A stretch of DNA of 64,000 nucleotides from Mycobacteriales bacterium (GCA_038329965.1 JBBQNN010000006.1:26357-90356); one strand, 5' to 3'. Positions 3,619 through 64,000 are shown, counted from the first letter of the stretch. Made by a program: numbers and translations. The notes: generated by a model from the sequence alone, not told the origin.

Positions 3619-5144
3619 CAGCTGAGTTCGAGAAGTGGGAAGCTGCGCCGGGACCGCGACGGAGCAAGGAAGTTCTGCCGCCGCGTGGCCGTGATACGCG
3701 GCTCGAGTCCCACGTCGCCGGGCTCGACCTTGAACTCGGCGACGAGGTCCGTCGCAGCCTGGTTGACGCGCATCCGCCGGAAATGGTCGGCTGTGGGCAC
3801 GAACGCGGAGAAGTGCAGCTTGGGCTGCTTGGAGCCGTCGGGCACGTCGAGCTCGTCGTAGCCGGGGCCGTCCACCCGGATGTGGATCGGTGTGCCGTCG
3901 GCCGCCCGGGACGAGCGGTGCAGGCAGCTGATGTGACCCAGGATCTTGTGCGTGGAGACCTGCTGCGGGCCGCTGCCGCTGGGCAACCAGCTGCCGGCCG
4001 TGCAACCCGCGCGCGCGTCGTCGGTGCCCTTGTAGGTGTTCGGGAGAAAGGTCGGACCGCCACCGTCGGTGAACTGATCGTCGTTGCCGAACGACGGCGG
4101 GTCGTTGGGGCGGTACATGTACTGCACCCGTTCCAGGTATGCCAGGTCCGCTCCGAACTCCCCTGAGTCGTCGACGAGGTAGAAGGCCGCCAGGTCCAGG
4201 ATGTTGTGGTTCAGCACCTGGATCGAACCGTTGTAGAAGTAGTCGCCGGCGATGGTGTCGGTGAGCCTCGCCGACTTGTTGCCCTGGAACGTGCAGATGG
4301 GGGGTGGCCCGAACGCGTTCGCCACCTGGTCGGCGAATCCCATCCACATCGGGGAATCGGGGTGGATCCGATTGGCGTAAGGCAGTGCGTCCTTGTCGGC
4401 GATCCGCCGGGGCATGCCGGGGCCGCCGAACATCACGCGGGCCGTGGTGATGTTGAGCAGCCCCGTGAACTTCGGCGACTGCACCGTGACGGCGTTGAGC
4501 TGGTTGCTGCCCTGCAGCCAGGCCTGCACCTCGTACAGCTTGGTCAGCGAGTCACTGCGCAGGGTGATGAGCATGTCGTTGGCCTCGATCCGCACCGGTA
4601 CGCGGAAGAAGCGCTTGTTGACCCCGGGGTTGCTCGGATGGATGTCACTCGGCCCCGGCACCGCCTCTTCCAGGGCGAACCGGCTGCGGTCGCTGAGCAG
4701 CTTCGGCATCCGCGGGGACACGACCGGGCCGGTCATGCCGCCACGCAGGCGGTTGAAGTACGGGATGCCGTACGAGGTATGGACGTACACCCCGGCCGGG
4801 CTGTTGGGGTACCAGCTCTCGATGGAGGCGAGCGCCTTGGTCAGTACGGTCTTGTCGGCCAGGGTGGGCATCCGGGTCAGTGTCACCGTGAGGAACAACG
4901 TGTAGACCGGGCCGAACCCGAACATCGTGCCGTCGATGTTGACCGGCGGCGCGAGCGTGGCGCCGATGTCGAACTGGATCGGCGGCCGGGCAGCGGTGGC
5001 CGCCGTTGCCGCCAGGGCGGCCCGCAGAGGTCCCGGGCCGGCGACGTCGAGCAGGCTGAGGGCGGAGGCGGCGAGCCCCGCTCCCGCGAGCTTGAGAATC
5101 GTGCGCCTGGCGATATCGGTGCTCTCGGTCGTGGCCTGAGCCAT
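3618..5144 (-). CDS. Tat-signal secreted protein, DyP-type-peroxidase-like (tentative)
   Basis: Start at ATG 5142-5144 (MAQATTESTDIARRTILKLAGAGLAASAL, twin-arginine signal). 508 aa. Patchy by-eye resemblance to the DyP/EfeB layout (ANDMLITLRSD, MWMGFADQ, NGSIQVLNHNILDL, KLHFSAF). Confidence 0.75.
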   Translation of the reverse strand: MAQATTESTDIARRTILKLAGAGLAASALSLLDVAGPGPLRAALAATAATAARPPIQFDIGATLAPPVNIDGTMFGFGPVYTLFLTVTLTRMPTLADKTVLTKALASIESWYPNSPAGVYVHTSYGIPYFNRLRGGMTGPVVSPRMPKLLSDRSRFALEEAVPGPSDIHPSNPGVNKRFFRVPVRIEANDMLITLRSDSLTKLYEVQAWLQGSNQLNAVTVQSPKFTGLLNITTARVMFGGPGMPRRIADKDALPYANRIHPDSPMWMGFADQVANAFGPPPICTFQGNKSARLTDTIAGDYFYNGSIQVLNHNILDLAAFYLVDDSGEFGADLAYLERVQYMYRPNDPPSFGNDDQFTDGGGPTFLPNTYKGTDDARAGCTAGSWLPSGSGPQQVSTHKILGHISCLHRSSRAADGTPIHIRVDGPGYDELDVPDGSKQPKLHFSAFVPTADHFRRMRVNQAATDLVAEFKVEPGDVGLEPRITATRRQNFLAPSRSRRSFPLLELS

Positions 5145-6663: not shown

Positions 6664-9600
6664 CTATCGTGCCGTGGTCTGGTTGGACGTGATCGAGTAG
6701 GCACTCGCACCCACCGCATTGATGGCCCTGACTCGGAACCGGTAGTTCTTGCCGGCGACCAGTCCGGTGAACTTGAGGCTAATCGCTGCCGCGGAAATCG
6801 GCTTCGCCCACACGGTGCTCGACACAAAAGTCGACCCGTTGTACTGGTCGGCAGCCACCAGATAGCCGGTGATAGCCGATCCACCATTATCCACCGGTGC
6901 TGTCCATTTCGCCGTTGCCGATATGACGGCATCTGTCGTCACGCCATTCGCGGCGCTGCCGATCGTCGGGGCCCCCGGAACGTTCACCGGGACGGCTGGG
7001 ATGACCGCATTGGACAGCTCCGACGGCGGCCCGGTGCCCACGGCGTTCGTCGCGGTCACCGTCAGCTGGTAGGCCGTCCCGTTGGTCAGGGCTGTGACCG
7101 TCCCCGCAAGGGCAGACCCGCCGACATCGGCCGTCTTCGTGTTGCCTGCGCCGTCCACGGCGGTGACCGTGTACCCGGTGATCGGGGAGCCCCCGTCACT
7201 GGCCGGGGCAGTCCAACTGGCACTGGCGGAGCCGTTGCCGGCCGTGGCGGTGCCGATCGTCGCCGCGTCCGGTGCTACCGCCGCGATCGGCGCAGCACCG
7301 CCGACGAGGCAGACCGGGTTGCCCGAGCCGACGTTGGCACAGTCGGCCGGCCGCGGCAGGAACCGCTGCAGTCCCCAGACACCGATCGCGGTGAACGGCC
7401 GCCGCAGGTCGCCGTAGAAGTAGTCGCCGACCGCCCAGCTCTTGCCCCCGCCTGCGCCGCCGACCATCTCCGCGTCGAAGGTCTGGCCGGGCCCCAGTTG
7501 CTGGTTGGCGGTCTGCTCGCTCTTGGGCACCCACCTGTCCCGAGGAGCCGACCAGCCGCCGAGGCTGAACACGTGCGGCTGCTCGCTGCCCGGGGTGACC
7601 ATCTCGTGGACCACCATCGGATCACCCACGTAGGCCTTCAGGACCGGCGTCGCCGGGTCGGAGCCCCCCGTGTGGAACGTGCCGGCGCTGTCACCGCTGG
7701 GTGCGTTGGCGTAGTTGATGTTCGTACCGCCCGGTTCCGCCTTGTCGGGGTAGGGCATGAAGTCCTGCGACATCGCCGGATCGTTGTCAGCCAGCAGCAG
7801 GCTGAAGTCGCGATAGTCCTTCTGTGGCGTCGTGCCGACAGCCGGCACGTGGACGTCTACCTGGGTCCCGATGTCCACCGCCGCGCCGGTCTGGGGGTCG
7901 GTGAAGGTGGCCCCCCTCTCGGCGACGACCACGGAGCCGTACAGGCCCTTCTTCTGACTGTTCGGGGTGACTGTCACACCGTCGGGGGCGACCCCACCGG
8001 TGCCGGCCATGTCCACGACCGATGCGGTGCCGACGTAGTGCGTGTCGGCATAATAGATGTAGTCACGCGTCGCACCCGGTGCGGTGTTGTTGTCCGGGCT
8101 GTAGCCCACGTTGACACCGGAGGAGTCGGCGTTGCGGTCAAGCTTGCCGACCGCGAACGACACCGGGAAAGGCCGGCCGTTGGTCAGGCTGACCTTGACG
8201 CACTCGCCCTCCGCCACGTGCATCACGAGCGGCTCGGGCTTGATGCTGCCGGCCTGGACCGCCGCGGCCCGGGAACTGTCGACGAAGACCGATCGAGCCG
8301 CCCCTGGCGTGTCCACCGCGCTGATGTTGAACGCGTGCGTCGGCGCATCGGTGGGACAGGGATTGCTCGGCGTGGTCACCGCCGGAAGGGTCGACGGGTT
8401 GGTGGCGGGAGTGCTCGGGAGCGAGGTCCCCGGTAGTGGCTTGAGGCTCGAAGAGCTGCCGCCCAGGACCCGGACGATGCCCCATGCGCCTTGCTGCAGC
8501 CGGCGGTCGTCGCCGTTGTAGTACAGGTAGTCACCTGGCTTGCTCCGACCGTTGGGGCCGTTGCCCTCCAGAGCGATCGTGTACTTCTCGCTCATGCCGT
8601 ACAGGATGGTGTCCTGCAGGGTGCCCACGGTGGATGGACTCCCGTATCCCGGATCACCCTGTGTCTTGCCGGATGCGTCATAGCTGATCCGGTTGTCGAT
8701 CGTGAACCGCTGCCCGGTGAAGTGCAGCGTGTCCATCGACGGGCCGACGTTGATCGTCCGCACCACGACCGGGTCACCGGGGTACGCGCGAGGCAACGGC
8801 GTGTTGGGGTCGCCGTACTTGTACGAGGAGAAGCGGTTGGCGGCATCCGGGCGGTCCTTGAGCGGGGCCGCCTTGAGGTTCAAGGTGGAGTAGTCGCCCC
8901 GGTCGTTGTCGTCGATCGTCCACAGCGCCAGCTCGCGGAAGCTGCCGTTGACCTTGCCGGGCAGCAGGGCCTGGTAGTTGGGCGCGCTGGGGTCGACCTG
9001 GATGTCGGCGATGGTGCCCGACGCGATCGCCTGGCCGGTGGCCGGGTCGGTGTACTTCGAGCCGGCCGGCTCGACGATCAGCTGCCCGACCAGGCCGTGG
9101 CCCCAGCCGTGGATGCCGTCGACATGGTCGTGCCAGAAGATGTTGTCGAGCTGGGTGTCGGCGTACCACTCGTACTGGATGAACTCGAAGCCGGAGTACT
9201 GCCCGGTGGCGTGGGCGTTGGACAGCGGCGCGTCGAGCGTCACCGTCTTGTTAGCCGCGTCCACCCCGACGACCTGGTGCACCTCGATGCTCTCGGTGCC
9301 CATGCCCGTACCGATGAACGGCTGGGCGGCGGCGCCGTCGGCGGTCTTGGTCTGGAATTTCGCCACGCTGGACAGGTGCAGCACGTTGTCGCCCACCGCT
9401 GCGGGCGCGGTCAGGGTCGGGTCCTCGGCCGCATACGGCCGGACCGAGTGCTCGTAGGCGAACCCGGTGGACACCCCGTCCGATCCCTGCACGTCGAACT
9501 GCACGTGGTGGATGTGGATGGTCGTCTTGGAGTTGCCGTCGAACGCGCCGACGTCGGGTAGTTCATTGGTCAGCGTGATCTTGCCGCAGTCACCGACGTT

Positions 9601-12228
9601 CATGCGCAGCGCCAGTGGGTCGGTGCGCAGGGTGCCGGCGAGCATGGCTGCCTTGTTCTGGGCCAGCACGAACAGCTTGCCCTCAGGATCGGTGACATTG
9701 CCACCGCCACCGCCGCCGCCGCCGCCACCGCCACCGCCACCGCGGACGGTGCGCAGGATGGTGACCGGAACGGCGACGATGTTGAAGTGCTTGATCGGGG
9801 TGTCGTGGCTCCCGTCAACCTGCTTGGACGGGCAGAGGCCGTCGGCGCGGTTGGCGTACGGGTCGACGGGATGCGTCGCGTCGATGACCGGTGCGGCACT
9901 GCCCCACTCGCCGAGGAACGGCGAGCCGGAGTGGCCCTTGGGACTGAACGGCGGCCGCTTCCCGACATGGGTCCGCAGCAACGGGTACGACGGGCGGCCG
10001 TCGACCGGGTTGAACAGGATCGCCGGCCGGTCGCCCACGATCTTGTCCAGCTGGTCGCCCGGCAGCAGCCCGGGATGACCGGGCACGTCGGACGCGTCCG
10101 CCCAGGCGGTCTTGTCCTCCGGCTCGCCGAGCGCCCGGTCGCCGTTGCCACCGGCGGAGGTGTCGAACTTCCAGTCCCACACCGACGGGTCCTGGCTGGT
10201 GGCCTTGACGCCCTGCGGCGGCACCTGCTGGCGCACCCAGGAGTCGAGCTTGGCGTGGCTGTCGATGGTCTGGCCGTTGTCGAACGTGCGGTTCATCAGC
10301 TGGTCGGAGGTCACCGGCGCGGCCAGCGGGGTGCGGTCCGGCAGCGGCGCGAAGTCGGGCTGGCGGGTGTTGTAGACCCGCCAGAAGCTCCACATGCCCG
10401 ACACGTAGTGCTTCGCGATGTGGCAATGGAACAGCAGGTCACCGACGGTGTGCTGCACGCCACCGGCGCCGCCTTCGAGCTCAAGGTTGTAGGACTCGCC
10501 CGGGCCGATCGACTGCGCGTCGAGCCGGTTGGAGGCGACCTCGTTCTGCGGGTGCTTGTTCAGCCGGGTGTCGGCGTAGTTCCACGACGGGTCGGCCACC
10601 GGGTTCAACCGCCACCGGTCACCACCACCGTGCAGGTGGAAGACGTGGAACTTCTCCCCGCTGGCGTGGCTGATCCGGAACTTCGTCGGGTCACCGATGT
10701 AGCCGCGGGGCATCGGCGTCGCCGGGTCACCGAAGGTGTAGGAGCTGTAGGCGTGCGACTTCTCCTTGCCGAAGGCCAGCAGCCGGTTGCGGAACGGCTC
10801 GGAGCGATAGCTCACCGCGAAGTGACCGGGGTTGTAGCTGCCGGTCAGGGAGTCGACCTGCGGGAGGGCGTGGTTGCTCTTGTCGTTGATCGTCTCGTTG
10901 TCGGAGCCGATCTCGTGGTGCATCAGGATGGCCTCGCGGAAAGCCGGCGTCGCGCCGGGGACGACGGTGGCCTCCCAGCCGGAGATCAGCGGCTGGCCAA
11001 CGACGCTGGCATTGAGGTAGGTCGAACCAGCGGGCTCGACGTTGAACATCCCGAACAGGCCGTGGTCCACCTGCGACCGGAAGCCGGGTCCTGGGTGGAT
11101 GTAGTGCGAGCCTTCCAGATTGGCATCGTTGGGAACGTAGTAGCGGTAGCTGGAGGTGTTGCCGCCGCTGACGGCCGAGTCGGCGTTCCGGCCGATCGAG
11201 TCCCCGGAGGAGGCCGTCGCGAACAACAGCCCGTCGATGTGCAGGCCGTAGCTACCGCCCGAGGCGCTGTTAGTGAAGTTGATGGTGACGCAGTCGCCCT
11301 CGTTGGCGCGGATCGACATGGGCTGGATCGGGTCGTCGCGCAGGCCGATGGAGACCTTCTGGCTGGCCTCCTCCTCGCGCACGGCCTGAAGGGCAGCCTT
11401 GGCGGTCCCTCCGGGGGCGGTCAGCAGGTTCTCCGAACGGACCCCGTTGTAGGTCGTGCTGGTGGCCACGAACATCTTGCCCTTGGGATCGTTGTCCCCG
11501 AACCGGTTGAGCGGCACCTTCACGTCGATCGCGGTGACGTCGAACGACCGCTGGTTGGCACCCGCCGGGCACGGGGCACCGGGATCGGCAACGGCAGCCG
11601 ATGCCGGCGAAGCCGCAAAGGGCATCAGGCTCAGCGTCCCGGCCGCCAGTGACACGGCAGCGATCCTGGCCGTCGGGCGGCGCCGGCCGTCGGTGCTGCC
11701 GCGTGGCCCGGTCAGTCGCGCGCGGAGTCGCGCAACGGCCGCTGTCGCACCCAGCGTGGCTGCCACCAGCGGCAGTGTCACGAGGAGCGCCAAGGCGACG
11801 TCGCGTCCGACGTTGGCGAGCACCGGCAGGTTGTTGGCCTCCGAGACGCCGAAAAGCCCCGCGTGTGCGGGGTTCGTGACGGCCAGGGCGACGGCGCCCA
11901 TCGTCGCGGCGAGCATCGCGAACATGGCGCTGCTCGCGGCGACGGTGAGCCGCTGAGCCGAGATCCGGGCGGTCAGGCTGGCGGCCGCCCAGACGGCGAC
12001 CAGCGCCAGCGGCAACGCGAGGCTGCCGTCCCGCAGCACCGTCGCGGCCAGCGGCGGCTGGCCGGTCGAGCCGCCGGCTGATGCCGTACGCAGCAGGACC
12101 ATCCAGAGACTGCCGCCGTACGCGAGCGCGACCGCCAGCGCGAGCAGTACGGCTAGGCGCGACCGGCCGGCGGGCAGGGCCCCGGCCTCGTGGTCCGGTG
12201 GCACGAGTCTGGCTACTGGTGGCCTCAT
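6664..12228 (-). CDS. giant multicopper-oxidase-domain protein with N-terminal TM domain and two C-terminal Fn3 domains (1854 aa)
   Basis: Cu-ligand motifs HVFHLHGGG, HCHIAKHYVSGMW, IHIHHVQ and WHDHVDGIHGWGHGLVG. About four N-terminal TM helices. Gly14 linker. Two terminal Fn3 domains. GAGGGA 7 nt upstream of the ATG. Confidence 0.9.
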   Translation of the reverse strand: MRPPVARLVPPDHEAGALPAGRSRLAVLLALAVALAYGGSLWMVLLRTASAGGSTGQPPLAATVLRDGSLALPLALVAVWAAASLTARISAQRLTVAASSAMFAMLAATMGAVALAVTNPAHAGLFGVSEANNLPVLANVGRDVALALLVTLPLVAATLGATAAVARLRARLTGPRGSTDGRRRPTARIAAVSLAAGTLSLMPFAASPASAAVADPGAPCPAGANQRSFDVTAIDVKVPLNRFGDNDPKGKMFVATSTTYNGVRSENLLTAPGGTAKAALQAVREEEASQKVSIGLRDDPIQPMSIRANEGDCVTINFTNSASGGSYGLHIDGLLFATASSGDSIGRNADSAVSGGNTSSYRYYVPNDANLEGSHYIHPGPGFRSQVDHGLFGMFNVEPAGSTYLNASVVGQPLISGWEATVVPGATPAFREAILMHHEIGSDNETINDKSNHALPQVDSLTGSYNPGHFAVSYRSEPFRNRLLAFGKEKSHAYSSYTFGDPATPMPRGYIGDPTKFRISHASGEKFHVFHLHGGGDRWRLNPVADPSWNYADTRLNKHPQNEVASNRLDAQSIGPGESYNLELEGGAGGVQHTVGDLLFHCHIAKHYVSGMWSFWRVYNTRQPDFAPLPDRTPLAAPVTSDQLMNRTFDNGQTIDSHAKLDSWVRQQVPPQGVKATSQDPSVWDWKFDTSAGGNGDRALGEPEDKTAWADASDVPGHPGLLPGDQLDKIVGDRPAILFNPVDGRPSYPLLRTHVGKRPPFSPKGHSGSPFLGEWGSAAPVIDATHPVDPYANRADGLCPSKQVDGSHDTPIKHFNIVAVPVTILRTVRGGGGGGGGGGGGGGNVTDPEGKLFVLAQNKAAMLAGTLRTDPLALRMNVGDCGKITLTNELPDVGAFDGNSKTTIHIHHVQFDVQGSDGVSTGFAYEHSVRPYAAEDPTLTAPAAVGDNVLHLSSVAKFQTKTADGAAAQPFIGTGMGTESIEVHQVVGVDAANKTVTLDAPLSNAHATGQYSGFEFIQYEWYADTQLDNIFWHDHVDGIHGWGHGLVGQLIVEPAGSKYTDPATGQAIASGTIADIQVDPSAPNYQALLPGKVNGSFRELALWTIDDNDRGDYSTLNLKAAPLKDRPDAANRFSSYKYGDPNTPLPRAYPGDPVVVRTINVGPSMDTLHFTGQRFTIDNRISYDASGKTQGDPGYGSPSTVGTLQDTILYGMSEKYTIALEGNGPNGRSKPGDYLYYNGDDRRLQQGAWGIVRVLGGSSSSLKPLPGTSLPSTPATNPSTLPAVTTPSNPCPTDAPTHAFNISAVDTPGAARSVFVDSSRAAAVQAGSIKPEPLVMHVAEGECVKVSLTNGRPFPVSFAVGKLDRNADSSGVNVGYSPDNNTAPGATRDYIYYADTHYVGTASVVDMAGTGGVAPDGVTVTPNSQKKGLYGSVVVAERGATFTDPQTGAAVDIGTQVDVHVPAVGTTPQKDYRDFSLLLADNDPAMSQDFMPYPDKAEPGGTNINYANAPSGDSAGTFHTGGSDPATPVLKAYVGDPMVVHEMVTPGSEQPHVFSLGGWSAPRDRWVPKSEQTANQQLGPGQTFDAEMVGGAGGGKSWAVGDYFYGDLRRPFTAIGVWGLQRFLPRPADCANVGSGNPVCLVGGAAPIAAVAPDAATIGTATAGNGSASASWTAPASDGGSPITGYTVTAVDGAGNTKTADVGGSALAGTVTALTNGTAYQLTVTATNAVGTGPPSELSNAVIPAVPVNVPGAPTIGSAANGVTTDAVISATAKWTAPVDNGGSAITGYLVAADQYNGSTFVSSTVWAKPISAAAISLKFTGLVAGKNYRFRVRAINAVGASAYSITSNQTTAR
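9701..9742 (-). repeat. (GGN)14 codon microsatellite encoding a Gly14 linker inside the oxidase gene
   Basis: Plus strand reads cca ccg cca ccg ccg ccg ccg ccg cca ccg cca ccg cca ccg. Translates as G14 in VRGGGGGGGGGGGGGGNVTD. Confidence 0.9.
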
Positions 12229-12322
12229 TGACCTGTCCCTCTATCTCTCGGTGATCCGCCTGATGAGTCAGCGCCGTCGAACCGCGGGAAGCGGACGCGG
12301 TGCATGCCGGAGAGATTGCGGG

Positions 12323-12402: not shown

Positions 12403-14460
12403 TCAGCGTCCGGCGCTCGACCGAAATTCGCTCATGAGGACCGCCGGGGGTGGCGCCACGTCGGTGGCGCGAGCTACGGGCTGGCTCACGGGCTGCCGCG
12501 GGGACGGCCCGTCGGTGGAGCGGCGGGCCGGCCGGCTGACCAGCGGCGGGCCCTGGACGTCGGTCGCGCGCCGTCTCGGCTGGCCATCCTTGAGGGTCTC
12601 TGCGTGCAGGTTGATGATGAATCGGCGCGCCGGCGACAGGGTTTGCGCCAGTATGTGGACGACCCCGGGGTGCCGGAAGGCGAATGCCTGTCCGACGGTG
12701 ATCAGGAGGCGCTCTTCGACCAGCCGGTCCAGCTCCTCGGCGATGCCGTGCAAGTCGGTGCCCACGAGGCTGGCGAGCAGCTTGGGTTCGACCGGCTGGT
12801 CGAGTACGGAAGCCACCGACAGCAGGCGATAGGCCTGCGGGCCCAGATCCCAGCAACGAGTGAGAACCCACTCGCGCAGGTCGGCCGGAAAGGTCTCGGT
12901 CAGGTCCCGCCGCCGGGCCTCCAGGTAGCCGGCCACGAAAACCGGGTGGCCGCCGGTCGCGGTGTAGAGATCGTCATCGCCGAACTCGGACAGCTCGGCC
13001 GGCTCGAGCACGTCGAGATCGATGCGGAGATCAGGTCGCAACGAACGCACTGCCTCGCGCTGCATGCCGGCCCGGTCGCAGGTCATGATCACCGCAATCG
13101 GGAGCGTCGGGCACCGCCGCCGCAGATATCCCAGGGTGGTCAGCGTGTCGGCGTCGGCCCATTGCACATCGTCCAGCACGAGGATCGCCGGAGCCGCTGC
13201 TGCCAGTCCTGACGCAAGCTGCTCCATCGCGCGCATCCGGGCAAACTCGTCGAACGGCCGGTCTTGCTCGGATCGAACCAACAATTCGTCCAGGACCGGC
13301 AGCCCCTCGTCCGACCCACTGTCGAACATCGGCCGCAGCGCCATCGACAACGCCAGATAGGGCAAGCCCTGCTCGAGATCCGAACACCGGTTGGCGCCCA
13401 CTGCCACTCCGGCCGCGCCGGCAACCCTGTCCACGAGCCGGGTCTTGCCGATTCCCCGCTCCCCGGTCACCAACACCAGGGTGAATCGGCCGCCCAGCGC
13501 CGCCGCCACCGCCGACTCCAACTCAGCGAGTTCGGCCTTGCGGCCCACAAAGGGAACTCCGGCCGGCACATCGACACTGCCGGCCTGCGCAGCGGAACCC
13601 GATCCCAGCGCCGTCCCCGGCTTGCGCGGCGGCACGTTGGCGGTCTCCGGCAACCGTGGCAGCAGCGCCGCCACATCCTCGTGCCGCAGGATCGCGAGGT
13701 GCAGGGCCACCGTCTGACCCAACGGGTCGACGCCCAACTCGTCGGCCAACAAGCGCCGGCAGCGGTCGAAGGCCGCCAGGGCCTCCTCCTGTCGCCACAG
13801 TGAGTAGTAGGCGGTCATCAGCACCTGGTAGCCGGCCTCCGCCAGCGGCGCCAGCGCCACGGCGCGCTCGGCCAGCGTCAGCGCCGCGGCCGCCTCCCCC
13901 GTCAGCAACGACAACCGGCCCGCGTCGATCAGCACCTGCACCAGACGCTGCTGATACAGCGTCCGAAGATCCTCGGCCCACTCTGAATACGGTTCGTCCT
14001 CCAGAGCAGGCCCGCGGACCAGGCCCAGCGCCCGATTGAGCGTGGCCAGGGCCGCGGCCGGCTCGGCGCCCACGGCCGCCGCTACCAGGCCGTCGAACAC
14101 GTCCAGATCCACCTCCACCTGCGACACGTCCAGCCGGTAGCCGCCGGGCTCGGTCACGACCACCGAGCCGGACGCCCGGCCGCCGGGCTGCAGAGTTCGG
14201 CGCAACACAGAAATGTAGGTTTCGAGCGTGGCCACATGATTCTGTGGCAGCGCTTCACCCCAGAGGAGGTCCGCGAGCCGGGACTTCGACACGGCGTGGC
14301 CGCGCTCCGTCACGAGAATCTGCAGGACTTGCTTCGGTTTCAAACCCGGAAAGTCTCGACCAGCCAAAATGGCGGAGCCCGAAGACACCCGCAACTGGCC
14401 GAACACGTCAATGTGCAAACGAATCTCCCCAGGTCGCGCCCACCCGGAGCGACTCCCCAT
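12403..14460 (-). CDS. SARP/AfsR-family regulator (OmpR-type wHTH + BTAD + P-loop NTPase)
   Basis: N-terminal wHTH (KQVLQILVTERGHAVSKSRLADLLWGE). BTAD (YQVLMTAYYSLWRQEEALAAFDRCRRLLADELGVDP). Walker A (VTGERGIGKTRL). Confidence 0.85.
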   Translation of the reverse strand: MGSRSGWARPGEIRLHIDVFGQLRVSSGSAILAGRDFPGLKPKQVLQILVTERGHAVSKSRLADLLWGEALPQNHVATLETYISVLRRTLQPGGRASGSVVVTEPGGYRLDVSQVEVDLDVFDGLVAAAVGAEPAAALATLNRALGLVRGPALEDEPYSEWAEDLRTLYQQRLVQVLIDAGRLSLLTGEAAAALTLAERAVALAPLAEAGYQVLMTAYYSLWRQEEALAAFDRCRRLLADELGVDPLGQTVALHLAILRHEDVAALLPRLPETANVPPRKPGTALGSGSAAQAGSVDVPAGVPFVGRKAELAELESAVAAALGGRFTLVLVTGERGIGKTRLVDRVAGAAGVAVGANRCSDLEQGLPYLALSMALRPMFDSGSDEGLPVLDELLVRSEQDRPFDEFARMRAMEQLASGLAAAAPAILVLDDVQWADADTLTTLGYLRRRCPTLPIAVIMTCDRAGMQREAVRSLRPDLRIDLDVLEPAELSEFGDDDLYTATGGHPVFVAGYLEARRRDLTETFPADLREWVLTRCWDLGPQAYRLLSVASVLDQPVEPKLLASLVGTDLHGIAEELDRLVEERLLITVGQAFAFRHPGVVHILAQTLSPARRFIINLHAETLKDGQPRRRATDVQGPPLVSRPARRSTDGPSPRQPVSQPVARATDVAPPPAVLMSEFRSSAGR

Positions 14461-14748
14461 TGAAGCCTCGTATCCCCGGATAACGCCAGAACCGAAAGGG
14501 CACTTCTGGGCGTGCCCAACGACCTATTGACAAGTCTTGACCTATACGCCCAGTTTCCCTTCGTCACTATGAGTAGGTCGCCGGAGCCGCTTGGTACGGC
14601 ACCCGCACGCGCACACCGCACCCTTCTCGTCGGTCGGGCCGCAACAGGGCTGAAAGGTTTCCGAGAGTGGCTTTGCCGACAGTCGGGCGGCAGGTACCGG
14701 GCAACGGCACGAAGGTCGTAGGACCGTTCCGACCAGCGTGGGACACCA

Positions 14749-56116: not shown

Positions 56117-57488
56117 GGCTCTTGTGACTCATCCTTGGGTGGGTTCATGCTGCGGGGCGGGCGGGTAGGGGTGGGCACAGTCCGCCGAGGTCGAGCATGG
56201 CCAGAGCGACGAGGGCTTCGGGGGATCGGAAGCCGAAGGCGATGCGGGTCAGCAGCCGCAGTTTCGTGTTGACGCTCTCGACCCGGGCGTTGGACGGTCG
56301 GTGGGTGAGGGCGGCGTCGATGCCTGCGCGGTGCTAACGGATCGACCGGGCGAGGTTGACGAACGCCGGGAGCCGGCAGCGCCAGGCCCATTTCAGCCAG
56401 GCGTCGAGCAGTGTGATCTCCTCGGTGCCTTTGAGTTGGAACACCTGACGGAGTTGCTCTTTGACCGGGTACGCGCGGTAGAGCGGCGCGTTGGTCTTGG
56501 CGATCCCGGCAAGCCTGGCGGCCTGTCCTTCGGTGAGATCGCCGGGGTTCTTCCACAGCGCGTAGCGGGCGTTCTTCAGGTCCTTCGCCACCGCCTTCTG
56601 ACCGCCCTTGCGGGCCGCGTTCCACACCCCGCGGCGTACCTCGTCCAGTGCCTTGGTGGCCCAGGCCACGATGTGGAACGGATCCAGGCAGGCACAGCTC
56701 GGCGTTGGGGCACCGGTCAGCGACGACGTTGACGATCCACTCGGGCGCAGCGGCGCTGACCAAGGTGATCTGGGCGCAGCGCGCCTCACCGAGGCGGTCG
56801 AAGAATGATCCCCAACGTCTTCATGTCCCGGCCCGATGTGCCCACAGCGACACCCCGGTGTCGTGCTCCACCACGACGGTGAGGTACTTGTGGCCGCGCT
56901 TGTAGGAGATCTCATCGATCCCGATCTGGCGCAGGTTCGCGAACCGGTTGATGGTGGCCTCGGCGTCGGCGACCACCCGGGTCACGATCGACCCGACCGT
57001 GCGCCAGGCGATCCGCAGCAGATCCCGGACCGCGGACTTCGAGCAGTGCGTGACCAGCCACGCGGCGGTGTCATCGAAGGCGCGAGTGTGGCCAGCGCCG
57101 TGCCGAGCCCACGGGACCTGCGCGGCGATGACCCCATGCTCGGCGCAGTTCACCCGCCGGCGGGTCGGCCCCCACAAACGCCTGGATGGTGCCCAGGTCC
57201 AGCGCCCGCCAGCGCCGCCGGCCCGCACCCTGGTCATGGCCCGGACAACGCTTCCCACACCGGCCGCACCGGCCGCACCGACACGACGACGGCCTGCTCG
57301 GCCTCGTCGAACTCGACGCCCTCCACAACGACCTTGACCAACCCCAGCAGCCCAGCCCATAACCTTGCAGAACGCACGCCGTTCCCCCCACCCACGATTC
57401 CGGTCTTTGACAACGGGAACCGTAGGCGGGGAACGGCATGTGATCCGTCAAGGCAGGCGCAGGCACCCACGGATCAGTCACAAGAGCC
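56117..57488 (-). mobile_element. ISL3-family insertion sequence (1372 bp) with terminal inverted repeats and 8-bp target-site duplication
   Basis: IRL ggctcttgtgactcatcc (56117-56134) matches the reverse complement of 57471-57488 (ggctcttgtgactgatcc) at 17/18 positions. Flanked by atcctttg at 56109-56116 and 57489-57496. Confidence 0.85.
56145..57380 (-). pseudogene. ISL3 transposase, disrupted (several frameshifts, in-frame TAG and TGA)
   Basis: Pieces in different frames: LLGLVKVVVEGVEFDE; RCGRCGKRCPGHDQGAGRRRWRALDLG; VNCAEHGVIAAQVPWARHGAGHTRAFDD...IDEISYKRGHKYLTVVVEHDTG; DPFHIVAWATKALDEVRR; ARSIR*HRAGIDAAL...SNARVESVNTKLRLLTRIAFGFRS. Confidence 0.75.
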
Positions 57489-57513: not shown

Positions 57514-58035
57514 TCAAGCAGGCGCCGGAAACACCAGTCCGTGTCGCTGGCACAGTCGCTGGATGCTGGCGGGATCCGCCTGACTGCCGTAGCGCACCTG
57601 CTGCTCGTCCGGAGATATGCGACCGGTGATCAGCTCGTCGAAGAAGTGCTCGAAGCCCGCAGGCGAGATCATTTCGAGAATGCGGCAGGTGGTGTCGCCG
57701 GCGTTCCAGAACGTGTGCCACTGGTCGCGCGGCTTGAACACCAGGTCACCGACCTCGGCGTAGACCACGTCGTCGCCGAGCTGCGCTCCCAATCGGCCCT
57801 CGATCACATAGCTGTACTCATCTTCCCGGCCGTGCCGGTGCAGCGGCGCGCAAAGGTGACGTGGCGGGATAGGGTGCTCTACGAGGGAGAAGCCGCCACC
57901 GGATTCTTCACCCCAGACCATGAACCGCACCCCGCACCCGCCGAGGTCGCCGTGCTGCCCATCCCGCGGGCCGACGATGCGCGGCCCTTGGGATGCCTCG
58001 AAGCGCTGCTTCCGCTGGGCGCTCGACTCTTGCAT
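57514..58035 (-). CDS. cupin-domain protein
   Basis: Start at MQESSAQ (ATG 58033-58035, AAGGAG 7 nt upstream). HRHGREDEYSYVIEG...GDLVFKPRDQWHTF cupin motifs. Confidence 0.8.
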   Translation of the reverse strand: MQESSAQRKQRFEASQGPRIVGPRDGQHGDLGGCGVRFMVWGEESGGGFSLVEHPIPPRHLCAPLHRHGREDEYSYVIEGRLGAQLGDDVVYAEVGDLVFKPRDQWHTFWNAGDTTCRILEMISPAGFEHFFDELITGRISPDEQQVRYGSQADPASIQRLCQRHGLVFPAPA

Positions 58036-58433
58036 CGGACTGCTCCTTTCGGGCGGGGTGCGACCACGGGTACGACGAATATTCTGCCTCTGAATGGGAC
58101 AGCGACCGGCTCGGCTGCCGCGCCGCCACCGGAGGGAGTTGCTGGGTGGACGCACGGTTTCCGCACGACGTCGCCGATCAGTGACCACCACCCACCCTGC
58201 AGGGGTCAACCGCTGGCCAAACCTCAAGGCGCCGAACGCCGCAGCGGACAGCACACCAGGCCCAGTCCGGTCCCCAACTGCCGGTCTCCCCCTCTCATCC
58301 GACCGATCCGCCCGGCCCCGGCAGGAGGCCTCCGCCTCCGAGCCACCGGTCGCATTCAGCTCTCATCGAAAAGGACACGCACGGCGTTCTTGGCGACGGT
58401 GGACGACACGTAGAACGGCGGCTTCCACCGAAG

Positions 58434-60482
58434 TCAAGGGAACGGGTGCGGAAACGGATTGATTTCCTCGTACCGCAACGGGTGATTGCAATAGCCGAGC
58501 TGATAGGGCGTCTCCAACAGCCGGGGGAGGCCGTCGACCCGGCGATAGTCGTGGCCGAAAGTCATCGGCAAAGCGCCGGGGACAAGCACCTTCACGCAAG
58601 CGAACCCTCCGTGGCGGTGCTCGGGGGTGGTCTGGTCCACCACGATGACATCCATCCCGGCGCTCACGAGGCGGTGTATCACCTGTCTCAGGTCTGCCGT
58701 GAGGTCGTCGTGCTGGAACGCGCTTCCCACGGCCGCGCGCATTTCCGGAAGGGTGCGCATCCCCGGCGACCCGGTGAGGAAGTCCAGTCGAGGAAATACA
58801 TCCGCCACGCCGTACAACGTGGAGTGGTCGTGCATGCTGGCCACCAAGCTCGAGTCGGCGGCCAGTCGGTGCGCATGCTCGGTCTCACTGGGGAATGAGC
58901 GGACGCTGCTGAAGAGTATCGATCCGAGCTCGCCCAAGGCGTTGAGGACTGCATGTTCCGGGTCGAGGTGGGAGCCGGCGCAGGAGAGTGCCTTGAACGC
59001 ATCCCCGGCGTCGTGGGGATTCACCGCCATCGCCCATATGCACGGGATTCCCTGTTGCAGGGTGGTGTCGAAGGCTAGGACTTCGTAGCCGGTCTCGGCG
59101 GTGATGGCTGCCGCTTGCAGCGGTACGACACGGTTGTGGGCGCTGGACAGGTCGATGCGGGGCGCCGGCATCTGGGCATACCAGGTCATCAGGAAGGCGT
59201 CGCGTTCGGCGACCTCCAGGATCCCGTAGAGGATGGCTTCTTCCAGGCAGCCGCCGATGGCGTCGCCGTTCGACAACTCGTACAGGAAGGGCCGTTCGGA
59301 CGGTGTGTCGTGCGGCACGCGGTAGTAGGCGACGTCCTCGGGCACCAGGATCGGTTCGGCGTTGGCAAAGGAATATCCCCACACCCACCGGGTGGTGACC
59401 GTCTCGTCGAACGGTTGGAACGCGAACCCGGGCAACGCGTAACTTGCCGCCGGGTGCACACCGAGAGTGCGCGGATCCAGTGCCTGGCCGGCCAGCTCGG
59501 CGTAGCTGCCGCTCGTGACGGTGCGCTTTCCGCCTGGCTCGATTCCGCCGTAGCGTTCCAGTGCCTCCAGTATCGCTATCAGCTCACTGGTCCGGTAGCT
59601 GCGAGATCGGCCCCAGCCGAACTCGCCGTGCTTGCCGCGTCGTTGCGGCATCACCGCGGCCGCTATGGCGAGGCCACCCTTGGTGTCACGCCGGAGCGCG
59701 CTGATCAGCCCGGTTTCGGCATCGACATAGCCGTCGACGAGCTTGTCGAGCTCCCGTATCGTCGGCCGCACCCGGTAGGTGTCGGGAGTGGCTTTGGGAT
59801 GCGCGACGAGCGTGATCGCCGCGAGTTCGGCGGTGTCCGCCGGCAAGCTGCCGCACACCGGGCACAAGGGCTCCGGTAGGAACCGGTGCCGGCTGACCGT
59901 GAGGTTTTCGAGATCGAGATGCAACGTCGCGCGCCAGGTTTGTGCTGTGGCGGGGCCGGCCGTCAGCAGTGACACCTCGTGCACCACAAGGGCGGCGACG
60001 GTGTCGCTGGCCAGGCCGGTCAACCAGGACGACGGACGTTCGGCTATGGCCGGCCGGTGTTGATCCCACGCCGACGCGTTGCCCTCGGGGTCGGACCGGG
60101 CCCGCCGACGGCGAAGTTCCATACAGTGCAGGCAGCCGGCAATGCCAGGTCGTTCGAGAGGGCCGATGACGACCGTACCGAGCTCGGCGTGCACAGTGAG
60201 CCACGGCACTCCGCGCTCGGTGCATACCTTGCGGATGTCGGGATAGCCGGAGGTGCCCCAACTGTCAGTTGCGGCCACGAGCACAGCGGTGTCAGCCGGC
60301 AACCCTTCGGGATTCAACCCCGGCTGGCTGTGGACCGTGCCGCTCGCGGAAAGCGCCCGGCCGATTTCGCGGTGCAGGATGCCTTCCCCCAACACGGCAC
60401 ACGCGAATCCGCCCGATTCCGCACGGCGCGATTGTTCGGGATCGCGAATCTCAAGCATCGAGCAACAGCACCCGGACGACAT
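58434..60482 (-). CDS. fused E1-like cyclodehydratase domain + YcaO cyclodehydratase (azoline-forming type)
   Basis: N-terminal domain with GCLHC...CPVCG. YcaO landmarks SELIAILEALERYGG, WVWGYSF, EAILYGILEVAERDAF. C-terminus ...NPFPHPFP (PxPxP). The start may be ATG 60458 instead of 60482. Confidence 0.85.
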   Translation of the reverse strand: MSSGCCCSMLEIRDPEQSRRAESGGFACAVLGEGILHREIGRALSASGTVHSQPGLNPEGLPADTAVLVAATDSWGTSGYPDIRKVCTERGVPWLTVHAELGTVVIGPLERPGIAGCLHCMELRRRRARSDPEGNASAWDQHRPAIAERPSSWLTGLASDTVAALVVHEVSLLTAGPATAQTWRATLHLDLENLTVSRHRFLPEPLCPVCGSLPADTAELAAITLVAHPKATPDTYRVRPTIRELDKLVDGYVDAETGLISALRRDTKGGLAIAAAVMPQRRGKHGEFGWGRSRSYRTSELIAILEALERYGGIEPGGKRTVTSGSYAELAGQALDPRTLGVHPAASYALPGFAFQPFDETVTTRWVWGYSFANAEPILVPEDVAYYRVPHDTPSERPFLYELSNGDAIGGCLEEAILYGILEVAERDAFLMTWYAQMPAPRIDLSSAHNRVVPLQAAAITAETGYEVLAFDTTLQQGIPCIWAMAVNPHDAGDAFKALSCAGSHLDPEHAVLNALGELGSILFSSVRSFPSETEHAHRLAADSSLVASMHDHSTLYGVADVFPRLDFLTGSPGMRTLPEMRAAVGSAFQHDDLTADLRQVIHRLVSAGMDVIVVDQTTPEHRHGGFACVKVLVPGALPMTFGHDYRRVDGLPRLLETPYQLGYCNHPLRYEEINPFPHPFP

Positions 60483-62559
60483 AGGGCATCACCTGGTGCA
60501 CCTCCGGATCGTGATCGAGGGGAATGGCCACCGGCTGACGGCCACCGCGCGCCAGCCTCGCCACGAGTCCCGAACTGTCGAGGACCGGATCTGTAGGCAG
60601 CTCGCGAGCGTCGGCCGCAGCCGGTCGCGGAGGACGGGCCGGCTCTTCGGTCGGGGCATAGGCTGGCTCGTCGTTGACGCGGGCCTGATAGCAGAGCAGC
60701 AGCTGCTGTAGGCCGTCCTGCAGTGCCTCAAGGGCCGAAACGCCGCACCCGTACGCAGCGAAATCCTGCCCGAGGAAGCAGGCGAACGTCGGCACGCCGA
60801 GGTCGCCGGTGATGTCGTGGATCGTCACCAGTTGGCCGGTGGCGACGAGCATCGCTATGCAGTCGTCGACGTGTTTGTCGGGTGGGCGTCGGCCGAGGTC
60901 CACAAGTGGGAAAACCCGAGCAGGCGCCGCCTCGTACTCAGTGATTGTGAGCCGGCGGCAGTGCTGAACGAGCCCAGCGATCAGCGCGCCCGACCAGCTG
61001 TACGCGGCCGCCACACCGCAAGGGGTCGCGTAGGGAACGACGGCTGCCCGCAGCGCGGGGAACACCGCCGCCGCGGGTAGAAGCACGGGTCGGCCGTCGC
61101 TCAACCGCAGCGCCCGCATCCAGCCTTCGAGTTCGCCCGATCGGAGTTGGGCCAACGCGTGAGTGCGATCGTGGCCGGCCGGCAGCAGGGCGCGCCCGTC
61201 ACTGGTCAGCAGCCGGCCAGGGTCGACCATCAGTGAGCCGTAGCTGCCCAGTGCCAGCAAGGCAGTCCGGTAGCGGGCCGTGGCGAATTCGTGGCCGGCC
61301 CCCGCAGCGACCGGGCGGGGGGCATCCGCTCCGAGGAGGCTCACCGGATCGGAAACCGTTGTCCGGCTGACACTTAACGGAAGTTGGGTGATGTCTCGCT
61401 CGGTGATGTCTCCGAATATGCCCAGCTGGCCGTTCACAAGAGCGGCCGCTCGTTGGGAGAACTCTTCCTCGGGGAGCGGCTCTCCAGCGTCCAACGCGGC
61501 GATCCGGGCCAGGAACTCGCTCTCGCTCTGCGGTGTGACGGGTGCGGCGAAAGGATGCGGCAGAAAGTCGTGCAGCTCGCCGTGCAGGGTGTCCAGGACG
61601 ATTCGGTTCAGCCCAGGCCAGTCCGGCCGCCGGTGCGTACCAGTCGTGTGACGGAACAGGCTGTGGATGAGGTGATTCGCCACTATGGCCGCTTGCGTGG
61701 TGGTCACGTTGCTCGCTGAGCCAGCTTCCGCGGCGGCCGATCCGGCCCATCCCGGGCCTTGCAGGGCGATCCGCCGCTGCCATCCGGACCACCAGCCGGA
61801 CCCACTGCCGTGCGGACAACCGGCGGTACTCAGCCACGCCTCGTCGCCGGCAACCAAGGCGTGCACCAGCGGGATGCGGCGCTGGGCACAGAACTGATCG
61901 AGCAACCCGGCCCGAGACACCATCGGCCGACTCGACACGTGGGCGACCAGGTCGACGCCGGACAACCACCCGAGTAGCTCGGCTGCATCATCCGAGCCGA
62001 CGGCATGTTGCTCGAGTTGCTGTCCCGAATCCCGGCGCGGAGCGCCTTGCCGGGATGCGTTCCAGCGCGAGACGTCGGTCGGGCACTCCGCCGTGAGTAT
62101 GGCGTGCACAGTCGCCAACCCTGACCGGAAGCTCGCGTTGACCGCCGCAGTGAGAAGCGGACCTGCACCCACCACGGCGACGACACCGTTTCGATATTGC
62201 TCGAAGGTTGACTCAGCCGACTCGCGGAAGCACTCGATGAAACCGATCTCGGATCGATAGGTGTCCAGCAGCCCAGCCGCGAGACCGTGCGGTTGGCCGT
62301 CGCGGACCTCTCGCAGCACATCTGAGTCGAGCAACATCGTGACGATCTGCTCCACCAACGCCGCCCGCTCCGGGGGCAGCGCCGTCGTCAGTTGCGCTAG
62401 CGAGTAGCGGCCGTCCAGGTAGGGGGTGAGCCGCTCGATCCACCGGTAGATCGATTCACCAGCCAGCGAGATCGCACCCCGATGGGTCAGGAAAGCCGCG
62501 CCACGAAGTGTTTCGACCAGATGAGCGTCTGCCCGCATTGTCAACCGAGCCGTGCTCAC
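60451..62559 (-). CDS. RRE-like + E1-like (ThiF-fold) + divergent YcaO-like domain protein (leader-binding/docking partner)
   Basis: GTG overlaps the upstream stop (GTGA). wHTH-like LDGRYSLAQLTTALPPERAALVEQIVTMLLDSDVL. VAVVGAGPLL loop. C-terminal half has AGHEFATARYRTALLALGSYGS and DITGDLGVPTFACF. No PxPxP end. Confidence 0.8.
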   Translation of the reverse strand: MSTARLTMRADAHLVETLRGAAFLTHRGAISLAGESIYRWIERLTPYLDGRYSLAQLTTALPPERAALVEQIVTMLLDSDVLREVRDGQPHGLAAGLLDTYRSEIGFIECFRESAESTFEQYRNGVVAVVGAGPLLTAAVNASFRSGLATVHAILTAECPTDVSRWNASRQGAPRRDSGQQLEQHAVGSDDAAELLGWLSGVDLVAHVSSRPMVSRAGLLDQFCAQRRIPLVHALVAGDEAWLSTAGCPHGSGSGWWSGWQRRIALQGPGWAGSAAAEAGSASNVTTTQAAIVANHLIHSLFRHTTGTHRRPDWPGLNRIVLDTLHGELHDFLPHPFAAPVTPQSESEFLARIAALDAGEPLPEEEFSQRAAALVNGQLGIFGDITERDITQLPLSVSRTTVSDPVSLLGADAPRPVAAGAGHEFATARYRTALLALGSYGSLMVDPGRLLTSDGRALLPAGHDRTHALAQLRSGELEGWMRALRLSDGRPVLLPAAAVFPALRAAVVPYATPCGVAAAYSWSGALIAGLVQHCRRLTITEYEAAPARVFPLVDLGRRPPDKHVDDCIAMLVATGQLVTIHDITGDLGVPTFACFLGQDFAAYGCGVSALEALQDGLQQLLLCYQARVNDEPAYAPTEEPARPPRPAAADARELPTDPVLDSSGLVARLARGGRQPVAIPLDHDPEVHQVMPYVVRVLLLDA

Positions 62560-63956: not shown

Positions 63957-64000
63957 GTCATCTGCGCGGCGGCAATTCTTGGCGAGCTGCCGATCTTGCG
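63947..64000 (-). CDS. 3' end of an upstream operon gene (17 codons visible, truncated by window edge)
   Basis: The frame reads ...RKIGSSPRIAAAQMTWA* with TGA 63947-63949 overlapping the SagB-like ATG. Identity unknown. Confidence 0.4.
   Translation of the reverse strand, partial: RKIGSSPRIAAAQMTWA

Follow-up and report, generated by a model that had tools for sequence, protein, structure and literature searches.

In the fused azoline-forming heterocyclases LynD and TruD, two identical subunits are arranged head to tail, so that domain 1 from one of them builds the peptide clamp together with domain 2 from its mate, as outlined in PMC6395948, and McbB of the microcin B17 synthetase McbBCD forms an asymmetric dimer for the same clamp purpose (PMC6395948). 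A different arrangement is described in PMC4603692 for the F-protein-dependent fused C-D cyclodehydratases of thiazole/oxazole-modified microcin (TOMM) pathways, which miss about 100 N-terminal residues, have lost precursor recognition and require an ocin-ThiF-like F protein that binds the leader peptide and forms a complex with the N-terminally truncated enzyme. The HcaF:HcaD complex is given as 1:1 in PMC10634744, and leader binding is reported for HcaF/HcaD, TbtF, and TclI (PMC4603692, PMC10634744, PMC12710340). PDB entry 8T19 is the leader-peptide-bound recognition element (the RRE of RiPPs, peptides that are ribosomally synthesized and then modified post-translationally) of the F protein from a GE2270-type thiopeptide pathway, and the Lx4F motif, defined for TbtA and PbtA, is recognized by the TbtF/PbtF RRE (PMC12710340). 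Here we analyze a 702-aa protein encoded on the minus strand of a 64,000-nt stretch of a Mycobacteriales bacterium genome (GCA_038329965.1, JBBQNN010000006.1:26357-90356; hereafter the window). It is highly probable that this protein serves as F protein for an azoline-forming cyclodehydratase of the F-protein-dependent kind and that it is a full-length paralogue of the LynD/TruD-type fused heterocyclases; it appears to have kept the RRE, along with the folds of its other two domains, while losing the Zn site, all ATP/Mg2+ ligands of the YcaO domain, and the catalytic tail at its C-terminus.

The initial annotation, made from this DNA alone, had proposed that the protein stacks an RRE-like winged helix, an E1-like Rossmann domain, and a divergent YcaO-like domain, and this architecture was confirmed by profile matches that are all far beyond chance. 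For the PbtF RRE an 86-residue crystal structure is available (PDB 8t19), and residues 3–84 match it with an E value of 1.5e-13 as a single sequence and 1.7e-29 as a family profile. TIGR03693 (NCBIfam ocin_ThiF_like) covers residues 3–443 over profile positions 7–436 (E 1.2e-40), and Pfam PF02624 (YcaO) matches residues 436–624 at 44.9 bits against a gathering cut-off of 25.7 (E 1.3e-11). In an AlphaFold2 model built on 17 homologues (mean predicted local distance difference test score (pLDDT) 87.7, predicted template modeling score (pTM) 0.83), the N-terminal domain adopts the winged-helix beta3-alpha3 fold. A Foldseek search of the PDB with this model returned full-length matches to LynD (4v1t/u/v) and TruD (4bs9) over approximately 810 alignment columns (E 4e-25 to 3e-23) as the best hits, with MusD next, then MccB and PaaA (RRE plus E1-like), the stand-alone YcaOs 6peu and 6ci7, and also ThiF and MoeB. 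Both the winged helix expected at the N-terminus and the YcaO homology expected in the C-terminal half are therefore detectable by sequence profile and by fold. The domain order is RRE, E1-like, YcaO, which is shared with the LynD/TruD/PatD group (PDB 4v1t, 4bs9). LynD and TruD, however, work as active homodimers, their ATP/Mg2+ sites intact and their C-termini bearing PxPxP, whereas the 702-aa protein has none of these and is only 13–14% identical to them; unlike LynD and TruD, it presumably pairs with a different, active subunit.

That subunit is probably the one encoded next to it, a 682-aa fused E1-like/YcaO cyclodehydratase, and the comparison of the two proteins points to the loss of catalysis in the 702-aa protein. 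BLASTP aligned residues 220–611 collinearly with residues 83–507 of the 682-aa enzyme at 24% identity (E 0.006). When two families were compared by hhalign, one of 158 relatives of the 702-aa protein (the F family) and one of 34 partner cyclodehydratases from the same genomic loci, residues 93–702 were aligned with partner residues 1–645 (probability 100%, E 7.5e-43). Relative to the partner, the 702-aa protein has approximately 92 extra N-terminal residues, which correspond to the RRE, and there is no counterpart to the last 37 partner residues (646–682, ...PFPHPFP), which carry the PxPxP motif, a tail that azoline-forming YcaO cyclodehydratases insert into the active site; as the initial annotation had stated, its own C-terminus reads ...VRVLLLDA. 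Table 1 takes twelve positions at which the partner family shows a single residue throughout (100%) and sets them against the 702-aa protein and the 158 F-family sequences. Except for R427, which corresponds to R536, none of these residues is retained in the 702-aa protein, and at none of the twelve positions is the partner-invariant residue the majority choice of the F family, save E415 (E 49%). The twelve positions map to helices from which YcaO enzymes build their ATP/Mg2+ coordination sphere. Those of the ATP/Mg2+-binding residues, in the two ExxE(R) helices and the S-N-G turn, are variable across the 158 relatives. With these ligands replaced and the PxPxP tail absent, the YcaO-like domain is predicted to be catalytically dead.

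These data decide between the two readings that the initial annotation had offered. Its first, a dead YcaO paralogue with a leader-binding domain, is supported by the homology to the PbtF RRE, the replaced ATP/Mg2+ residues, and an RRE-less partner. Its second, in which the C-terminal domain is another active YcaO that acts on the same substrate with a distinct ATP-dependent backbone chemistry (formation of a thioamide or an amidine, or a further round of azoline formation), found no support, no ATP/Mg2+ ligand having survived. The domain does pass the Pfam YcaO gathering score and is under clear purifying selection, and active YcaOs without a PxPxP tail are known, for example E. coli YcaO (PMC6395948). 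The S-N-G turn and the Mg2+/ATP glutamates in each of the two ExxE(R) helices are nevertheless replaced, here and across the 158 relatives, while in McbD the change of a single Mg2+-coordinating Glu to Ala nearly abolishes activity and the C-terminal Pro matters for catalysis (PMC6395948). Domain scans of the window genes also revealed no TfuA or other YcaO partner nearby, and we consider a second YcaO chemistry very improbable.

The E1/ThiF-like Rossmann-type domain aligns with the E1-like half of the 682-aa enzyme and retains the GxG loop, with G131 present in 96% and G133 in 89% of the family. Together with the Foldseek matches to MccB and PaaA at E ~1e-12, this conservation would fit a working adenylating enzyme of the MccB/PaaA style that activates a peptide carboxylate, in which case the F protein would be an enzyme rather than a scaffold. 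MccB and PaaA share the fold of the first two domains with the 702-aa protein but are active enzymes with intact ATP sites and have no YcaO domain. In the 702-aa protein, the region that matches the place of the ThiF/MoeB DxDxVxxSNLxRQ arginine-finger motif is unrelated in sequence, and in several relatives (P0009, P0012-P0015, and P0017) this segment, which follows the GxG loop, is deleted. Ser210 stands at what we take to be the position of the catalytic Asp of the MoeB 'TDN' motif. The partner family has four invariant cysteine residues (C117, C120, C207, and C210), which we read as a structural Zn site, and the family of the 702-aa protein keeps none of them. Its E1-like domain thus lacks the Zn cysteines and, by our reading of the motifs at the level of sequence, appears to lack the adenylation motifs. 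Reviews also state that ThiF-like partners of YcaO enzymes catalyze no reaction (PMC12596934), and we give an adenylating role very little credence.

Loss of catalysis did not lead to loss of constraint. The mean pairwise identity across the F family is 35% in the YcaO-like domain, compared with 37% in the RRE and 30% in the E1-like domain, and the dead YcaO domain accounts for 21 of the 46 columns in which conservation reaches 85% or more. The near-invariant residues of this domain, R429 (98%), Y440 (96%), W522 (89%), P680-L-D-H-D684 (84–97%), and P692 (98%), as well as Q392/P394, are specific to F proteins and have no counterpart in active YcaOs. Because the domain is conserved like the RRE and holds 21 of the 46 conserved columns, it is not drifting, and we take it as a likely specific interface with either the cyclodehydratase or the dehydrogenase, or with the two of them. 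The loss of catalytic residues could in itself also be read as a sign that the gene is a decaying, functionless duplicate of the cyclodehydratase. The frame is, however, intact over 702 aa, hundreds of full-length relatives exist, the columns described above are conserved along with the synteny, and F proteins are experimentally required in related systems according to PMC4603692, so that the probability of a decaying duplicate is practically negligible. The second active YcaO, the active E1 adenylase, and the pseudogene were accordingly all rejected on residue losses or conservation. As a separate observation, two of the former Mg2+-Glu positions are most often occupied by Arg in the F family.

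The 682-aa neighbor would supply what the 702-aa protein has lost. It matches PF02624 at 274.9 bits, TIGR03604 at 350 bits, and TIGR03882 at 138 bits. Because its alignments begin only at residue 124 of TruD and residue 148 of LynD, it is devoid of an RRE, with the E1-like/YcaO catalytic unit predicted to be intact, and it is therefore complementary to the 702-aa protein. A fused enzyme that misses this N-terminal part is the signature of an F-protein-dependent cyclodehydratase, and docking of the F protein on the 682-aa enzyme is expected from the characterized systems (PMC4603692, PMC10634744). In the mechanism that we propose, the RRE of the F protein would bind the Lx4F motif in the leader of a 62-aa precursor, and the F protein would pair with the 682-aa enzyme, the E1-like domains being the probable contact. 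The pairing would rebuild the LynD homodimer in asymmetric form, with a single peptide clamp and a single active site; given the homodimeric clamp of LynD/TruD and the asymmetric dimer of McbB, such a heterodimer is the simplest model. The Cys-rich core would then be fed into the active YcaO domain of the 682-aa enzyme for ATP-dependent cyclodehydration, and the SagB/ThcOx dehydrogenase would oxidize the resulting thiazolines to thiazoles. For the dead YcaO domain this scheme leaves a structural or docking role and no part in catalysis.

Two further systems are close to this scheme. McbB is likewise a non-catalytic leader clamp for a separate YcaO, in which two E1-like copies are used asymmetrically (PMC6395948), but it consists of RRE and E1-like domains only, binds Zn, has no YcaO-like domain, and assembles with a stoichiometry of B4C2D2. 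TclI, the Ocin-ThiF-like scaffold of micrococcin biosynthesis, is a partner with an RRE that binds the leader and also brings in the cyclodehydratase as well as the dehydrogenase (PMC10634744). In contrast to the 702-aa protein, it is described as having two domains, an RRE and one C-terminal domain, with no YcaO-like domain indicated (PMC10634744), the comparison with TclI being one of descriptions. The proposal made for TclI raises the possibility that the dead YcaO domain chiefly docks the SagB/ThcOx dehydrogenase and that the F protein shuttles the bound precursor between the two enzymes. TclI binds TclJ and TclN mutually exclusively (PMC10634744). The genes of the dehydrogenase, the F protein, and the cyclodehydratase are adjacent in most of 35 genomes, the overlaps in the window suggest translational coupling, and the F-specific invariant motifs suggest a specific interface. 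With only two domains in the published model of TclI (PMC10634744), the analogy may not map onto the dead domain, and we regard the shuttle as rather unlikely, though far from negligible. It is compatible with an F protein that clamps the leader for the 682-aa enzyme, and would refine this assignment, not replace it.

The 702-aa protein is not an oddity, which the initial annotation had missed, but a known TOMM F protein of the kind represented by HcaF, TbtF, and PbtF. It shares the homology to the PbtF RRE and the TIGR03693 match (IPR022291) with TbtF and PbtF of the thiomuracin/GE2270 thiopeptides and HcaF of heterocycloanthracin, and it shares with TOMM F proteins the adjoining SagB dehydrogenase, the RRE-less fused cyclodehydratase, and the Lx4F leader of the precursor. 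An exhaustive profile search over representatives of 50%-identity clusters identified 2396 relatives at E <= 1e-3, of which 732 also passed E <= 1e-30, and nearly all of the best 150 match the full profile. Thiopeptide gene clusters are the setting of most of these relatives. A PbtF-like relative of 661 aa (P0047), which is 77% identical to the PbtF RRE and of the same length class as the 702-aa protein, has the same three-domain layout: it covers profile positions 5–693 and has a Pfam YcaO match of its own at 32.7 bits. Since this protein matches both the full profile and Pfam YcaO, the PbtF/TbtF-type thiopeptide F proteins appear to share the whole architecture, the dead YcaO domain included. 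Some members of the family are publicly named 'YcaO-like family protein'. In 2012, the NosH-like equivalent had no Pfam match, and a role in six-membered ring formation was guessed (PMC3454323); a NosH-like protein was later shown to be a leader-binding partner. An explicit statement that F proteins contain a YcaO-fold domain was not found in the literature searched, where the terms are 'ThiF-like' and 'Ocin-ThiF-like', although several key papers lay outside this search and the absence is no proof that the point is unpublished.

The genomic loci of the relatives were scanned with a nine-sequence subset of the alignment as the query. The gene order dehydrogenase, F protein, cyclodehydratase is kept in most of the 35 loci, and most of them also have a LanB-type dehydratase, its C-terminal partner, and a pyridine synthase homologue, with precursors whose leaders read LP(M/L/V)DVF(E/D)...ESLTAGHG. 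Relatives close to the 702-aa protein occur in thiopeptide clusters (L040), and the locus of a homologue with 52% identity (P0004) has the textbook form of a thiopeptide cluster, its precursor matching Pfam Thiopep_pre. One further locus (L026) is presumably thiomuracin-like; a text search of the literature with the thiomuracin core SCNCFCYICCSCSSA gave no match. Among the thiopeptide loci, five with the core SLPFCSCSATCSCC... have a second, divergent YcaO (L009:15747-16829, L016:15942-17021, L017:11823-12911, L031:16036-17118, and L032:16333-16785), which is approximately 26–32% identical to the window cyclodehydratase over the YcaO domain and is located a few kb downstream; in all of them but L017 it is on the opposite strand. 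In two Pseudonocardiaceae metagenome-assembled genomes (MAGs), the F and cyclodehydratase genes have, directly upstream, a precursor whose repeat core, ...GGCYCSCSCSCSCSCSCSCSCCD, is heterocycloanthracin-like (L011:9651-9821 and L012:1254-1427); a LanB gene is absent from these loci, as is any clear homologue of the window dehydrogenase.

The precursor of the operon in question lies just beyond the end of the window, and it was read from a near-identical metagenome contig (L037), which extends past this end and in which position 7104 corresponds to window position 64000. The stop codon of the precursor gene is 19 nt outside the window, which therefore cuts the cluster. Its leader, LPLDVFE...ESLTADHG, is of the thiopeptide type and combines the Lx4F motif (L-P-L-D-V-F) with ESLTxxHG, whereas Pfam Thiopep_pre does not match the 62-aa precursor. 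The core, ...STKTFGFCCNCCVVCDGP, has five Cys and only one Ser. No homologue of LanB_N or LanB_C was found in the 64-kb window, including its larger genes, or in the 6.9 kb upstream (L037:1-6896), and a pyridine synthase homologue is likewise absent near the operon in the window and L037:1-6896, unlike at the loci of most relatives. The operon thus has none of the features by which a thiopeptide cluster is recognized, namely a LanB-type split dehydratase, a [4+2] pyridine synthase, and a core with two Ser. Because the LanB and pyridine synthase genes are missing and the core is Cys-rich behind a thiopeptide-type leader, the operon suggests a thiopeptide azole machinery without dehydration or pyridine formation, and a linear polythiazole is predicted as the product. 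We also considered that an ISL3-mediated deletion may have taken the LanB genes out of a former thiopeptide cluster, but a core with one Ser could not form the pyridine ring anyway.

The two closest relatives, at 53–54% identity, have the same compact layout (L041:2851-8653 and L042:3323-9501), with a LuxR-type regulator, precursor, dehydrogenase, F protein, cyclodehydratase, and GNAT acetyltransferase. Their precursor cores are ...SADICCVICSQPSRTS and ...ACLLCCPPS..., and the contigs, at 9–10 kb, are too short to exclude more distant LanB genes. As set out in PMC4603692, Cox et al. (2015) had found F proteins beyond thiopeptide and heterocycloanthracin clusters in only two cases, and with these two precedents a LanB-less context for an F protein is uncommon but not unprecedented.

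Several points weigh against the assignment of the 702-aa protein as an F protein that clamps the leader for its neighbor. The TIGR03693 score of 139.4 bits is far under the equivalog cut-off of 561.9, which is tuned to the Bacillus heterocycloanthracin proteins. On this score the protein is a member of the wider TIGR03693 family and not an HcaF equivalog; its homologues from thiopeptide clusters and the PbtF-like P0047 score equal or lower. Its identity to the relatives in thiopeptide clusters is only 33–54%, and the absence from the operon of the LanB-type dehydratase and pyridine synthase genes sets its context apart from that of the characterized F proteins. By our reading of the alignment with the PbtF RRE, Phe68 of TbtF, which is reported to stack on the leader Phe, is replaced by Leu. 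The geometry of the heterodimer with the 682-aa enzyme is purely our inference, and a purely passive scaffold would not explain the conservation of R429, Y440, W522, and the PLDHD motif at 680–684. We put forward tentatively, as a joint proposal with somewhat less than an even chance of holding in full, that the long F proteins are complete dead copies of LynD-type enzymes in an obligate pseudo-symmetric heterodimer with an RRE-less active copy, where the dead YcaO domain acts as an interface or allosteric module, and that the operon of precursor, dehydrogenase, F protein, cyclodehydratase, and cupin is a thiopeptide offshoot that makes a new linear polythiazole from the core FCCNCCVVC.

The 702-aa open reading frame (ORF) is a real gene. 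Its homologues are found at E = 0 to 1e-219, its GC content at third codon positions is 0.76, and the plus-strand reading of the same interval was discarded as its translation is full of stops. The peptide strings quoted in the initial annotation are all present in the minus-strand translation: SIYRWIERL...VLREV at residues 36–85, VAVVGAGPLLTAAV at 126–139, GIFGDITERDITQLPL at 380–395, AGHEFATARYRTALLALGSYGS at 421–442, GVAAAYSWSGALIAGLVQHCRR at 515–536, and DITGDLGVPTFACF at 582–595. The ORF starts with GTG and shares 4 nt with the upstream dehydrogenase gene, including that gene's stop codon, while its 3' end overlaps the start of the downstream cyclodehydratase gene by 32 nt, or by 8 nt if the second Met of that enzyme is used. 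The public annotation of an identical protein from a Pseudonocardiales MAG (P0001, 695 aa) begins at Met8. Because residues 3–7 line up with the PbtF RRE's first strand and show conservation across the family, the GTG start, which adds seven upstream codons (62539-62559), is better supported than the Met8 start. The three overlapping minus-strand genes, dehydrogenase, F protein, and cyclodehydratase, form one operon. The dehydrogenase has a ThcOx-type N-terminal domain and, as a member of the SagB/ThcOx type, is predicted to be the enzyme that oxidizes azolines to azoles. The cupin-domain ORF directly downstream of the cyclodehydratase is a candidate member of the pathway with an uncertain start, the public gene call (L038) being 173 aa. 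Two genes downstream of the cyclodehydratase, there is an ISL3-family transposase fragment on the minus strand (56821-57447) with HTH_Tnp_ISL3 and the first 30 residues of the DDE domain, which may mark a cluster boundary or a past rearrangement.

Table 1. Positions of the features of the operon, and residues of the 702-aa protein at twelve positions invariant in the partner cyclodehydratases
Feature	Position	Strand	Evidence or state in the F family
Gene of the probable F protein (702 aa, Ocin-ThiF-like TOMM partner protein)	60451..62559	minus	ORF, translation, TIGR03693, family, fold
RRE (winged helix), leader-peptide binding domain by homology, residues 1-90	62290..62559	minus	PbtF RRE 8t19
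E1/ThiF-like Rossmann-type domain, residues 95-335	61555..62277	minus	TIGR03693, MccB/PaaA/ThiF/MoeB fold, partner alignment
Predicted YcaO-fold pseudo-enzyme domain, residues 376-702	60454..61434	minus	Pfam YcaO, Foldseek, profile-profile alignment, residues listed below
Fused E1-like/YcaO cyclodehydratase gene, 682 aa from first ATG or 674 aa from Met9	58434..60482	minus	Profile matches
SagB/ThcOx-type flavin mononucleotide (FMN) dehydrogenase gene, 466 aa	62556..63956	minus	PF22767 ThcOx, PF00881 nitroreductase, TIGR03605 148.8 bits
Precursor gene, 62 codons	~64019-64207 equivalent; L037:6897-7085	minus	Translation MSLDMLVGPDVADLPLDVFELENEGFAVESLTADHGFTMPDGRLSTKTFGFCCNCCVVCDGP
Cupin-domain ORF	57514..58362	minus	Cupin_2, E 7.8e-14
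Partner E306	L435		R 55%, A 14%
Partner E309	G438		A 61%, E 27%
Partner R310	S439		Variable
Partner S404	P513		P 58%
Partner N405	C514		Variable
Partner E415	G524		E 49%
Partner E423	Q532		D 25%, A 19%, G 19%
Partner E426	R535		R 36%, L 14%
Partner R427	R536		R 31%, A 23%
Partner D428	L537		L 68%
Partner E509	L610		A 36%
Partner E518	Q619		Q 32%, R 28%

Elsewhere in the window, two very large minus-strand ORFs at 6664-12240 (1858 aa) and 1057-4551 (1164 aa) have fibronectin type III repeats, one of them together with multicopper-oxidase domains and the other with a rhamnogalacturonan-lyase-like domain. These ORFs and a SARP/BTAD-AAA regulator at 12403-14523 are unrelated to the RiPP operon.

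The 702-aa protein belongs to a known class, the TOMM F proteins, which will not surprise specialists and does not overturn the current understanding. What the analysis contributes is a clear demonstration that the F partner is a whole dead copy of a fused heterocyclase, together with its LanB-less cluster context. For annotation, the gene should be named as a TOMM F protein, that is, a leader-binding partner and not a second cyclodehydratase, the name 'YcaO-like family protein' overstating its chemistry. For genome mining, the operon offers a compact four-gene candidate (precursor, dehydrogenase, F protein, and cyclodehydratase) whose product would be a linear polythiazole peptide from a precursor with a leader of the thiopeptide type. 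For RiPP enzymology, the family is a clean case of a pseudo-enzyme subunit that reflects duplication and division of labor, with the RRE in one copy and catalysis in the other, and the conserved dead YcaO domain is a target for mapping how F proteins activate their partners.

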